Source of the DNA: a virus
Lineage: Duplodnaviria > Heunggongvirae > Uroviricota > Caudoviricetes
IMG/VR virus record: IMGVR_UViG_2585427763_000002
Length of the DNA: 42,068 nucleotides
Direction: 5' to 3' (one strand)
The notes beneath the pieces are model-generated. The model did not search any database, had not been told where the DNA came from, and saw only the letters and a list, made by a program, of their open reading frames with translations. Shown here piece after piece: positions 3,992-36,784 of the stretch (its first letter is position 1; every line of letters starts with the position of its first letter). The position numbers were made by a program, and so were the translations under genes.

Positions 3992-4503
3992 GCCGCGTTT
4001 CCTTCTTTCTTATTAACAATCACACCGTCATATATTTCATTAAGGTGCCCTCTCAACTCCATGCGCCTTAATGCAGATAACATGTAATCGCATTCAACCT
4101 GCTTATTCCCAGTAAATGGCTTATCGTCAGGATTACCCCAACAGCAATTACCCCTGGGCCATCCATGTACTTTCCGTACTCTTCCGTTAACAACGTGAAG
4201 TAATCCCCAGCCGGGAGGTAAATCCTCAACTGAAATAATTTCCGGCTCACTAATAAAGAATCGCCAGTCGCCCATGCCAAGTGAGGGATTTTTACGGAAA
4301 CGCTTTTTTCTATCTGCCAACAAGTCAGCACGAGAACACTTCGCCTCTATCAGGCATGATGCTGAATTTCTGAATCCCATAGCATCTGGCTGTTCTCCGG
4401 TACTGGTTACAGCAACAAAGCGGTCATGAAAGCAAACCTTGAACCCGTTGCGCTTAAGGAACTTGTACGCAATCTGACAGAGTTCGTGGTGTGTTAACGC
4501 CAT
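3988..4503 (-). CDS. PD-(D/E)xK nuclease-like protein (family not identified)
   Basis: 171 aa from ATG at 4503 (TGATATG coupling to upstream gene); motif EQPDAMGF...(16 aa)...IEAKCSRADL fits PD...(D/E)xK. Confidence 0.5.
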   Translation of the reverse strand: MALTHHELCQIAYKFLKRNGFKVCFHDRFVAVTSTGEQPDAMGFRNSASCLIEAKCSRADLLADRKKRFRKNPSLGMGDWRFFISEPEIISVEDLPPGWGLLHVVNGRVRKVHGWPRGNCCWGNPDDKPFTGNKQVECDYMLSALRRMELRGHLNEIYDGVIVNKKEGNAA

Positions 4504-16732: not shown

Positions 16733-16917
16733 ACGCCACAATTCAAACGATACCAGAGCTTCTTATCCAGACACGAGGCAATCAGACCGAAGTGGCAAGG
16801 ATGCTTTCCTGCGCAAGAGGAACAGTGCTCAAGTACAACCGAGACAGCAAAGGCGAGCGTCACGTAATAGTTAACGGCGTCCTGATGGTCAAACAGGGCA
16901 AGAGGGGAAGACGATGA
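16729..16917 (+). CDS. ninH: NinH-like protein
   Basis: 62 aa; ...GNQTEVARMLSCARGTVLKY... resembles lambda NinH HTH. Confidence 0.6.
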   Translation: MNATIQTIPELLIQTRGNQTEVARMLSCARGTVLKYNRDSKGERHVIVNGVLMVKQGKRGRR

Positions 16918-17402
16918 GCATAAGAGAATTAAACCTCACCAAAGAACAGCATGAGTGGCTGAATGGCTGGCTTGAACTGTGGGGCGCATGGGTTTATTCA
17001 GGTCGTCTGGAAAAGCGCATGAGCAGCGTAATAGCGAAGTTCATGGAGAGCGTAGACCCGGGAAGAGTTATGACAAGGCCAATGTGCAATGATGATGATG
17101 GAATGTTGATTTCTCAGGTCGTCGATTCCGTCATGTACATTGACAAGAAAGCCTTTGGCATCCTCCTCAGCTACTACGCCCATGGATCTTCCAAGCACGC
17201 CATTGCATCTTACTATCATCGCGTCGCAAGACCTCGCAAGATGTTATGCCGTGGCGGCGGGCGCATTCAAAAACCATCGCTCGCAACCTGTCGACGGGAA
17301 GTTGACGAAATCCTTAATGCCTCGTTGTTTATGATTTATCCGGTTCTGGATAGTGCGTTTAAAAACCGGAAACGTGTAGAGAAAATTAAACATGTAGCAT
17401 AG
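16914..17402 (+). CDS. Q: Late-gene antiterminator Q (non-lambda Q type, phage 82/21-like size class)
   Basis: 162 aa immediately upstream of a TTGACA promoter/terminator unit and the lysis cassette. Confidence 0.75.
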   Translation: MSIRELNLTKEQHEWLNGWLELWGAWVYSGRLEKRMSSVIAKFMESVDPGRVMTRPMCNDDDGMLISQVVDSVMYIDKKAFGILLSYYAHGSSKHAIASYYHRVARPRKMLCRGGGRIQKPSLATCRREVDEILNASLFMIYPVLDSAFKNRKRVEKIKHVA

Positions 17403-17404
17403 AA

Positions 17405-17495
17405 CGTGTTGACATCATTGAGCAAATGAGCAACACTATTCACATAAGCTGCCGTTAGTGACTCTTAAGTTGCAACGGTGGCTTTTTTTGTTTGC
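17405..17495 (+). promoter_or_regulatory. Late promoter pR' with qut region and tR' terminator
   Basis: TTGACA at 17409-17414; hairpin GCCGTTAGTGACTCTTAAGTTGCAACGGTGGC followed by TTTTTTTGTTTG at 17451-17495. Confidence 0.5.
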
Positions 17496-17941
17496 ACAAC
17501 AGGTAAGAGCATTGAACCCGCAGACCTCGCGGAATTGGTGAAAGGTGCCGCGCAGTGCTCTTATCGTTGTGGTGAAGCTCAATGGCGAGCTAGCAGATAG
17601 GCGACAGTGAAAATACTAGTCATGTAGCTGACCGCCGCGCGTACTGCAATCGGCAGCGCACCGATGGAAGCCGGTTCGATTCCGGCCGCCACAACCCAAA
17701 CTGAGCCGTAGCCACTGGCTATCCTGAATTCATCAGTGATAGTTACGCTGCGGCCTTCTACATATGATCTTCGTGAAAGCGGGTGGAAGGAGGTCGCGCT
17801 AACAACCTCCTGCCGTTTTGCCCGTGCATATCGGTCACGAACAAATCTGATTACTAAACACAGTAGCCTGGATTTGTTCTATCAGTAATCGACCTTATTC
17901 CTAATTAAATAGAGCAAATCCCCTCAATGAAGGGGTAGAGC

Positions 17942-18145
17942 ATGTACCGTATGGACAAAATCAGAGAATGGTTCAGTTACAGCTTCGGAGGACTGACTGC
18001 GATGGGTGGCATTCTCTCCCTGAATGACTGGGCTGTCATCATTGGTATTCTTTGTACTGTCGGCACATTTGGCATCAACTGGTACTACAAGCGCAAAGAG
18101 CGCGAGGACAGATTGAATGGCAATGTCACCGGCACTACGAAATAG
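17942..18145 (+). CDS. Holin (pinholin-like)
   Basis: 67 aa, two hydrophobic segments and charged C-terminus; Met1 and Met4 as possible dual starts; precedes SAR endolysin. Confidence 0.7.
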
Positions 18146-36521: not shown

Positions 36522-36721
36522 GTAAAGAATGTTGTTTCTGCGGCATTAGCGAATCAGACGCTGATCAAACATACATTTACTCTAAAGAAACAGGTCGGAT
36601 GCTGTGTAGTGACTGCGTGTTGGACATCATAAGATACAAGCATCTTGGATGTTCTGCCAGCATTAGCAATATAGGTGAAGTATATGAAGGGAAAGATATA
36701 ACTGATAGAGCAGAAAGTTGA
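36518..36721 (+). CDS. Small zinc-ribbon-like protein
   Basis: 67 aa with CxxC...CxxC pattern (CCFCG ... CSDC); ATGA-coupled to arc-like stop. Confidence 0.45.
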   Translation: MSKECCFCGISESDADQTYIYSKETGRMLCSDCVLDIIRYKHLGCSASISNIGEVYEGKDITDRAES

Positions 36722-36784
36722 AGCCCCAACTGCGGTAACAGTCAGGGCTTCGGTATCGTAAAACCACGCATAGGAATTAACGAC

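Follow-up and report, generated by a model that had tools for sequence, protein, structure and literature searches.

What is encoded in the long non-coding gap that separates the antiterminator gene Q from the holin gene of a lambdoid phage? The question is raised by the IMG/VR virus record IMGVR_UViG_2585427763_000002, a 42,068-nt stretch of DNA (hereafter, the window, meaning the whole stretch), which the sar RNA detected in it by Rfam marks as that of a P22-like/lambdoid phage. An initial annotation of this gap had proposed a tRNA-like or structured RNA, and had taken it for a degenerate tRNA or tRNA-derived remnant. As described below, there is little doubt in our minds that positions 17566-17698 encode a functional, structured, tRNA-shaped non-coding RNA (ncRNA) whose family is undescribed, and that this RNA is linked to a hairpin RNA of the type of the phage lambda RNA LPR2. 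The first half of the earlier proposal is correct, and relatives do carry tRNA genes in the same slot; the second half is contradicted by a complete, covarying cloverleaf and by conserved features foreign to tRNAs, namely a long arm, its internal loop and a self-complementary hexamer. The parts of the cassette and the genes on either side of it are on the + strand.

A tRNA-shaped RNA without an anticodon loop

The unconstrained minimum-free-energy (MFE) fold of 17567-17698 is a cloverleaf of five arms: an acceptor arm, a D arm, a 55-nt arm, a variable arm and a T arm. The limits of the RNA, 17566-17698, are those indicated by this fold together with covariation, the RNAalifold consensus and a covariance-model match at 17564-17699. 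The acceptor-like stem, of 8-9 bp, is formed by (G)TTGTGGTG / (G)UUGUGGUG at 17566-17574 and CGCCACAA(C) at 17687-17695; its 3' strand directly abuts the T arm and is followed by CCA at 17696-17698. The D arm (17576-17591) consists of AGCUC (17576-17580) and GAGCU (17587-17591) around the loop AAUGGC, which contains the GG typical of D-loops. The initial annotation had stated that no acceptor or D stem can be paired; both pair in the MFE fold, and the acceptor, like the rest of the fold, is kept by covariation. The two hairpins that it had recognized are where it placed them, i.e., the canonical T arm, GCCGG-UUCGAUU-CCGGC, at 17670-17686, and a 5-bp stem with a 7-nt loop at 17649-17665, AUCGG-CAGCGCA-CCGAU, which we identify as the variable arm, with a 4-nt linker. 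The position of the anticodon arm is taken by the 55-nt arm (17593-17647), made up of a base helix, an internal loop, an inner helix and an apical loop.

Comparison with related sequences places this fold beyond chance. Among 27 distinct sequences the cloverleaf is 95.9% paired, versus 30-44% when the partners are slid; in an alignment of 26 distinct sequences, which takes in copies found with a D-arm bait so that the variable arm is no longer forced to be invariant, the paired cells amount to 96.2%, versus 31-44%. In the latter set, compensatory changes on both sides of a pair are seen in 17 of the 34 pairs, and none of 500 shuffles matches the observed value on any measure. RNAalifold, unaided, arrives at these helices as well, and 16 of its 31 pairs show compensatory changes. 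Covariation extends to five of the six helices, including the variable arm, whose stem occurs as ATCGG/CCGAT, ATCAG/CTGAT, ATTGG/CCAAT and ATAGG/CCTAT, that is, with three kinds of compensatory change. Such changes affect five of nine pairs in the acceptor and three of five in the T arm, and both the base and inner helices of the long arm covary; G.U pairs are tolerated throughout. The exception is the D stem, which is near-invariant in the 26 distinct sequences (four of five pairs constant, one C-G to U-G change) and 100% paired. The loop sequences GGTTCGA(T/C)TCC (T loop) and (A/G)(T/C)GG (D loop) are conserved in the 26 aligned sequences, with GTTCGATTCA in locus L022. Across lambdoid, P22-like and virulent phages of enterobacteria, the fold is kept in 144 copies, about 64 of them distinct.

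A covariance model built here, R1, matches the window over its full length (positions 1-137) with 155.4 bits and E = 1.6e-34. The window copy is a member of the R1 seed; copies outside the seed are independent, and those in Klebsiella pneumoniae, Enterobacter and Superficieibacter score 146-149 bits. Real tRNAs score 23.8 (tyrT), 20.2 (tRNA-Thr), 16.5, 13.7 and 11.7 bits. Non-enterobacterial bait matches of a genome scan were discarded as noise (10-20 bits with R1), except for one contig of a metagenome-assembled genome binned as Cellvibrionaceae, L160, where positions 4317-4452 (-) score 155.4 bits and have the same GC content as the window copy; this is probably a misbinned enterobacterial phage contig.

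Established tRNA finders do not report this RNA. ARAGORN finds no genes by default, and nothing at normal thresholds in its intron, tmRNA and mitochondrial modes; its calls at -ps80 are weak and mutually overlapping, and were set aside. The Rfam tRNA family (RF00005) gives no match even at E<=10. Both miss the cloverleaf because it has no anticodon loop. The initial annotation had named the lack of a covariance-model hit as part of what would refute its proposal: Rfam and ARAGORN provide none, whereas R1 does, at 155 bits, and the negatives mean that the family is undescribed, nothing more.

By the canonical criteria for a tRNA, the RNA has a cloverleaf with acceptor, D and T arms, the T-loop UUCGAnU with G53:C61, and the D-loop GG. 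It has no 5-bp anticodon stem, 7-nt loop or U33, and instead has the 55-nt arm with an apical loop of 18-20 nt. With the anticodon arm thus replaced, it cannot decode. The tRNA tyrT aligns to R1 arm for arm, with the long arm at the position of the anticodon arm. The cloverleaf keeps four arms of a class II tRNA, namely acceptor, D, variable and T, and would probably adopt an L-shape with an elbow of D and T loops. Like class II tRNAs and tRNA-Sec, it combines a long variable arm with an acceptor/T stack of 8-9 + 5 bp (8/5 in bacterial tRNA-Sec); unlike them, it has a larger, 7-nt loop in the variable arm, a 4-nt linker and no anticodon loop.

Other RNAs are tRNA-shaped and non-decoding. The tRNA-like domain of tmRNA and the bacterial Y RNA YrlA resemble the window RNA in keeping the acceptor/T-arm or elbow shape to engage tRNA-binding machinery. 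In contrast to tmRNA, the window RNA has no tag ORF, no pseudoknots and no G3:U70, its acceptor having U3:A or G3:C; ARAGORN in its tmRNA mode (-m) is negative, and the Rfam tmRNA model matches the T arm only, with 10.2 bits versus 47. YrlA has its 5' and 3' ends in the Ro-binding stem. The window RNA ends at the acceptor stem, and bacterial Y RNAs have no Rfam match in it at E<=10.

A self-complementary hexamer in the long arm

In the per-lineage folds, the long arm of all lineages has a short base helix and a conserved asymmetric internal loop, (A)UAG / GCGCGUA (AAUAG / GCGCGUAA). The inner helix is rebuilt from different sequences, and the apical loop is of about 18-20 nt. At a fixed place in this loop is a hexamer of the form NCNNGN, which in the window is ACUAGU (17615-17620). 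It is self-complementary in 27 of 27 distinct sequences (a score of 0.688 versus 0.142 in shuffled sequences, 0 of 500), and in all 144 copies. Seven types occur, namely ACUAGU, UCUAGA, UCUGGA, UCGCGA, GCUAGC, UCCGGA and ACCGGU. Six of these are palindromes as DNA; UCUGGA, present in 20 copies, is self-complementary through G.U pairs only. Within one shell, L059 has UCUAGA, L017 UCUGGA and L038 UCGCGA, and close relatives differ by one-step or compensatory changes.

Within a single molecule, a run of six neighbouring nucleotides has no way of pairing with itself; because of this, and because UCUGGA is symmetric through G.U only, the simplest explanation is pairing between two molecules. On this comparative pattern, we consider it rather probable that the RNA forms a homodimer by kissing of the apical loops through the hexamer. 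RNAcofold was dropped as a test of this idea, since nearest-neighbour co-folding cannot model loop-loop kissing. A mechanistic analogue is the dimerization initiation site of HIV-1, where a self-complementary 6-nt loop sequence likewise exists as several alternative palindromes; it belongs to an unrelated RNA and biology, while here the loop is of ~18-20 nt and the dimer is predicted from sequence. A pseudoknot between GCGC of the variable loop and GCGCG of the long arm was also considered, and was rejected because a G-to-U change in the loop lacks compensation.

A modular slot behind an LPR2-type hairpin

The tRNA-shaped RNA is directly preceded by a second structured element, the long imperfect stem GGTAAGAGCA...TGCTCTTATC, which extends over 17502-17565 in the MFE fold. 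The initial annotation had noted this stem as a mere flank; the stem is there, and it is a homologue of the lambda small RNA LPR2. A lead-in motif, CACAAC (17495-17500), is conserved ahead of the hairpin in all hairpin-type lineages. The hairpin itself has a conserved stem, GGUAAGAGCA/UGCUCUUAUC, around a lineage-specific interior, and this stem covaries to GGAGAGAGUA/UACUCUCUUC or AUCGCUUUG/CAAAGCGAU. Nearly all late-leader and free-standing copies of the tRNA-shaped RNA are preceded by (C)ACAACAGG and such a stem, with a 40-70-nt interior that is unrelated between lineages; this interior is hypervariable, with at least ten unrelated inserts of 40-70 nt (e.g., in L022, L024, L025, L032, L036 and L007). 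The CACAAC motif is also a duplicate of the 3' acceptor strand, and GTTGTG at 17566-17571 is a potential pairing partner for it. This pairing would add 6 bp to the hairpin at the cost of the acceptor, and may reflect an alternative fold or a recombination scar.

In lambda, the hairpin module that follows tR' is 63 nt long. LPR2 is a ~63-nt, Hfq-bound RNA of the lytic cycle, detected by RIL-seq of lambda infection and by northern blot (Silverman et al., bioRxiv 10.1101/2024.10.31.621285). The probe used in that northern blot is the reverse complement of the interior of the lambda hairpin; hence, 17502-17565 of the window belongs to the LPR2 family but has another interior. LPR2 is of a size that implies cleavage at the junction between the hairpin and the closing stem behind it. 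The lambda and window hairpins have in common their location just after tR', the lead-in CACAACAGG, the stem GGUAAGAGCA/UGCUCUU(A/U)(U/C)C and a length of ~63 nt; they differ in that the interior, presumably the target-pairing part, is unrelated, and in that lambda has no tRNA-like RNA behind its hairpin. Nothing in the window matches the LPR2 probe (21/35). Hfq binding and accumulation in the lytic cycle are known for lambda LPR2 only.

In the lambda late leader, the hairpin is followed by a closing stem, UUGUGCUG/CAGCACAA-CCCAAACUGAGCCG, that shows covariation with the corresponding stem of the window and encloses a short interior that is not tRNA-like. Such a shell is found in lambda both in the late leader (L157 388-545; lambda ~44787-44944) and in the N leader (L156 (-) 395-500). 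In phages CUS-3, HK629 and ep3, the hairpin and closing stem surround yet another interior, 'type B' (L003 822-1041, L129 ~971-1090 and L130 ~971-1115, respectively), which has no Rfam match. The slot within the closing stem appears to swap cargos precisely within a helix. In type B, the loop of a D-like hairpin, GGCUGA, is complementary to that of a T-like hairpin, AGUUCAGCA (GCUGA/UCAGC), which suggests a Watson-Crick 'elbow'.

Other lambdoid phages have the tRNA-shaped RNA in their pL leader, downstream of nutL boxB and ahead of the start codon of N; one such phage, L010, encodes lambda N. In these copies, leader and trailer sequences lengthen the closing stem, which reaches 20 bp, contains one bulged A and ends ~20 nt before the N start codon. 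The 20-bp stem is 96.3% paired, with compensatory changes in 11 of 20 pairs (0 of 500), and is almost identical to the stem of the lambda N leader. From the equivalent leader in P22, that of gene 24, a 96-nt RNA, P22B, accumulates. The window differs from both, as its copy is in the late leader, and the lambda and P22 interiors are not tRNA-like.

The 3' tails of the tRNA-shaped RNA belong to this shell. They vary (CCAA, ACCA, CATT, ACTT...), are base-paired in the N-leader copies and are absent from the copies in Skatevirus phages. Because the lambda shells, too, contain ...ACCAAAGC and ...CCCAAAC, CCA-like tails are no evidence for a tRNA 3' end, and an encoded CCA end was dropped from our description.

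The element is widespread. A distant search finds it in 116 phage records, including Salmonella siphoviruses of Skatevirus and Akiravirus at ~95% identity, ST1UNAM at 81% and Pantoea phage PdC23 at 79%. Motif scans with two baits yield more than 120 IMG/VR contigs each, and the full element is present, unannotated in every case, in 158 of 5,426 complete E. coli genomes. The insert of the window is shared by HK75 and 611R6. There are at least four contexts, i.e., the late leader, the N leader, structural modules and the early region of the Pantoea phage. In the Skatevirus vB_CECAV_048, the RNA unit is antiparallel to the tail genes, and comprises, in order, a promoter-like site (TTGACA-17-TAGATT), a leader, an LPR2-type hairpin with an interior near-identical to that of lambda, the cloverleaf, 3' hairpins, and a GC hairpin with UUUAUUUAUUU. 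The element is also antiparallel to its neighbours in other structural modules. The antiparallel placement, the promoter-like site and the early-region copy argue for a trans-acting product; its upkeep in unrelated phage groups and genome positions argues for selection on the RNA in its present form.

No family of Rfam 15 covers the element, either at the gathering threshold or at E<=10, in the window and ten related loci. The matches obtained are sar, elsewhere in the window, and STnc100 in L017, downstream of the element, and nothing else. The latter (RF02076, 55.7 bits; L017 7060-7262 (-)) lies ~80 nt from the tRNA-shaped RNA, which means that some phages have three small RNAs in a row between Q and the lysis genes; in the window, STnc100 has no Rfam match. 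Identity with PasA-D, P22E or P22B was rejected, as no probe or RNA matches the window; the Pas RNAs and P22E, like STnc100, are small RNAs known from the vicinity of holin genes. RefSeq carries the element without annotation, and a literature search by sequence string and by concept found no description of the tRNA-shaped RNA. In GenBank, the cassette has only two incidental annotations: ON470589 (611R6; L004 732-857) has a spurious 'polyubiquitin-A' on a 42-aa ORF across the hairpin, and PQ186186 (L005 2587-2644) has a 'tRNA-Ser' label on the 3' 58 nt of the cloverleaf, a misannotation.

Q (16914-17402) matches Phage_antitermQ (PF06530, 88 bits), and the class II holin gene (17942-18145), followed by a lysozyme gene, matches PF16080 (75 bits), in agreement with the flanking genes initially named. 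The pR' region (17409-17442) has TTGACA at 17409-17414 and, at 17417-17432, ATTGAGCAAATGAGCA, the very sequence that PMC8022706 gives for the Q-binding element of phage 21; the Q of the window is therefore of the Q21 specificity type. A simple sigma-70 scan gives no match in this region, and the annotation of HK75 has pR' at the equivalent place, along with Tr'. The downstream leader is common to the window, HK75, BTP1 and CUS-3; the Q and pR' of these three phages differ from those of the window. The terminator tR' (17448-17489), identical in sequence in BTP1, CUS-3 and 611R6, has a 9-bp stem, GCUGCCGUU/AACGGUGGC, followed by seven U; a simple terminator scan (GC-rich stem, 3-8-nt loop, at least 5 T in 8) misses it because its loop exceeds 8 nt. 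In HK629, pR' and the RNA cassette are separated by an inserted HNH endonuclease gene (L129 331-843). The non-coding gap measures 455 nt between tR', which ends at 17489, and the holin ATG at 17942, or 539 nt if counted from the Q stop. Small ORFs at 17478-17600 and 17736-17888 have no Pfam match and were not retained as genes.

Downstream of the tRNA-shaped RNA, the lysis-gene leader (17699-17941) is conserved in lambda, BTP1, CUS-3 and HK75, and so is a hairpin within it (17785-17814; 10-bp stem with one mismatch, 10-nt loop) that is followed by TTTT (17816-17819). The initial annotation had called this hairpin terminator-like; hairpin and T-run are both present, and with a 10-nt loop and four T only they fail the terminator scan. 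Lastly, the sar antisense RNA (RF00262, 85.7 bits) at 36716-36783 (-) marks a P22-type immI/ant region.

What the RNA may do

The explanation that we favour, and regard as reasonably probable, is that the window has a late-transcribed cassette of two ncRNAs in a modular slot of the lambdoid late leader, the second of which would be a processed, dimeric, trans-acting tRNA mimic or decoy. Q-dependent read-through of tR' would be followed by a host endonuclease cut at the hairpin/cloverleaf junction, possibly by RNase P in the window leader, and the RNAs would be released; in the N-leader relatives, RNase III would cut in the 20-bp closing stem. Excision of the RNAs from the leader by host nucleases is likely. 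Two molecules would then join via the apical-loop hexamer into a trans-acting dimer, most plausibly a decoy or sponge that captures a host factor able to recognize the shape of tRNA, e.g., a tRNA-targeting defence nuclease. That a tRNA mimic titrates such a factor is the most economical idea of its role, and a speculative one, to which we give only tentative credence. There is a precedent: the PtuAB nucleases of Septu and retron-Eco7 cleave class II tRNA-Tyr in its variable arm, and phage tRNA-Tyr counteracts them, partly as a decoy. No specific link between this precedent and the tRNA-shaped RNA was found.

Several observations weigh against this reading. Taken as a single sequence, the window RNA folds with only modest energy (z = -1.8 for the cloverleaf, and -3.3 once the 5' hairpin is included). 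Dimerization is argued from covariation throughout, and the palindromes could instead be caused by a symmetric protein site. LPR2 and P22B match neighbouring or analogous modules, not the cloverleaf; as LPR2 is produced in lambda, where no tRNA-like RNA lies next to it, its release by cleavage does not require the cloverleaf. As the CCA-like tails are unconserved and derived from the shell, 3' maturation of the tRNA type is uncertain. Descent from tRNA-Tyr or tRNA-Ser was considered and is not claimed, tyrT scoring only 23.8 bits with R1 versus 20.2 for tRNA-Thr. No candidate partner protein was found. Finally, the RNase III cut is only presumed to lie in the lambda N-leader stem, where Steege 1987, Kameyama 1991 and Wilson 2002 reportedly place it.

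The strongest alternative is a purely cis-acting leader, in which processing or stability signals (for RNase III, RNase P, or entry or blockage of RNase E) tune the expression of N or of holin and endolysin, akin to the structured N leader of lambda. The lambda leaders do have the same closing stem around other interiors, the stem of the N-leader copies ends close to the N start codon (~20 nt), and the literature describes a highly structured lambda N leader that is subject to RNase III modulation. However, the window element ends 243 nt before the holin ATG, and its interior is under structural and sequence selection far above the needs of a stem. Unrelated cargos occupy the same stem, and the copies in virulent phages are antiparallel to their neighbours, alongside a promoter-like site and a hairpin with T-run. 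We thus regard this alternative as unlikely, if still worth serious consideration.

Less probable, by a good measure, is a chargeable tRNA-like RNA, recognized by an anticodon-blind synthetase of the SerRS, LeuRS or AlaRS type and used in the manner of tmRNA or as an amino-acid donor. The class II layout would suit such a molecule, with its long variable arm, its acceptor of 8-9 bp on a 5-bp T stem and its conserved elbow nucleotides; some lineages start with GGUGAGGUG, presumably like E. coli tRNA-Ser, and tRNA-Ser is what the one GenBank record calls the 3' part. Against charging, CCA and discriminator are unconserved, the 3' tail is base-paired in the N-leader copies, the acceptor has no G3:U70 and the long arm has no conserved ORF; moreover, the tmRNA searches detect nothing (ARAGORN) or the T arm only (Rfam, 10 bits versus 47).

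A degenerate tRNA pseudogene, or a remnant left by recombination from the tRNA genes that occupy this slot in relatives, is very improbable. The idea is a natural one, given that standard tRNA finders fail and that the slot does house tRNA genes, as the initial annotation had correctly supposed for some lambdoid phages: BTP1, Oslo and SPN9CC have annotated tRNA-Asn and tRNA-Thr there, and homology with the window resumes directly after their 3' end. These and similar tRNAs (tRNA-Asn and tRNA-Thr of BTP1/Sf6, tRNA-Asn and tRNA-Leu of phage L) have in common with the window RNA the position after tR', three arms (acceptor, D and T) and the consensus of the T and D loops; the window RNA differs in its 55-nt arm, its additional 5-bp variable arm and 4-nt linker, and its 8-9-bp acceptor. 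But a pseudogene would not preserve its pairing, and here compensatory changes occur in five of six helices, alongside invariant loops and conserved non-tRNA features, in copies spread over unrelated phages and positions. Pairwise identities down to 79% also speak against an alignment that merely reflects one sequence having spread very recently.

We consider equally improbable that selection acts on the DNA, i.e., that the palindrome and inverted repeats are the target of a dimeric DNA-binding protein, part of a recombination site or connected with restriction sites. Cargo exchange precisely within the closing stem would fit this idea, as would the six of seven hexamers that are DNA palindromes; yet the seventh, UCUGGA, in 20 copies, is self-complementary as RNA only, G.U pairs are tolerated across the helices, the T and D loops conserved are specific to tRNA, and the Skatevirus copy lies on one strand between a promoter-like site and a hairpin with T-run. 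Least credible of all is a functional tRNA gene with an intron in its anticodon arm: ARAGORN at an 80% threshold with introns allowed does propose a tRNA-Ala(GGC) with a 38-nt intron at 17567-17698, but the call is sub-threshold, with A at position 33 and a mismatched stem, the supposed anticodon is not conserved in other members, the long arm has its own covarying helix and conserved loop, and bacterial tRNA introns are self-splicing group I introns of ~200 nt or more, for which 38-50 nt is too short.

Returning to the trans-acting tRNA mimic, a broader hypothesis, which we advance with considerable reserve, is that a portable, self-dimerizing mimic of this kind is an 'RNA cargo', carried either in nuclease-processed leader slots or as a gene with an apparent promoter of its own, and that it neutralizes or hijacks a host factor that recognizes tRNA shape, such as a defence effector that cleaves or modifies tRNAs. 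The seven hexamer alleles would then determine the molecules that are able to pair, and would thereby prevent cross-dimerization between the RNAs of co-resident phages.

The RNA described here sits in two heavily studied regulatory regions, the N leader and the late (Q-S) leader of lambdoid phages, and yet is unannotated; model R1 lets annotators find the family. If our reading is correct, these leaders would be exchangeable slots that deliver trans-acting RNAs, among them LPR2-type hairpins, the tRNA mimic and at least one 'type B' RNA, and a non-decoding, tRNA-shaped RNA apparently built to dimerize would represent a new design among tRNA mimics. It would also be a candidate for RNA-based counter-defence, at a time when immunity that targets tRNAs (PtuAB/Septu, retrons, PARIS, PrrC) is emerging.

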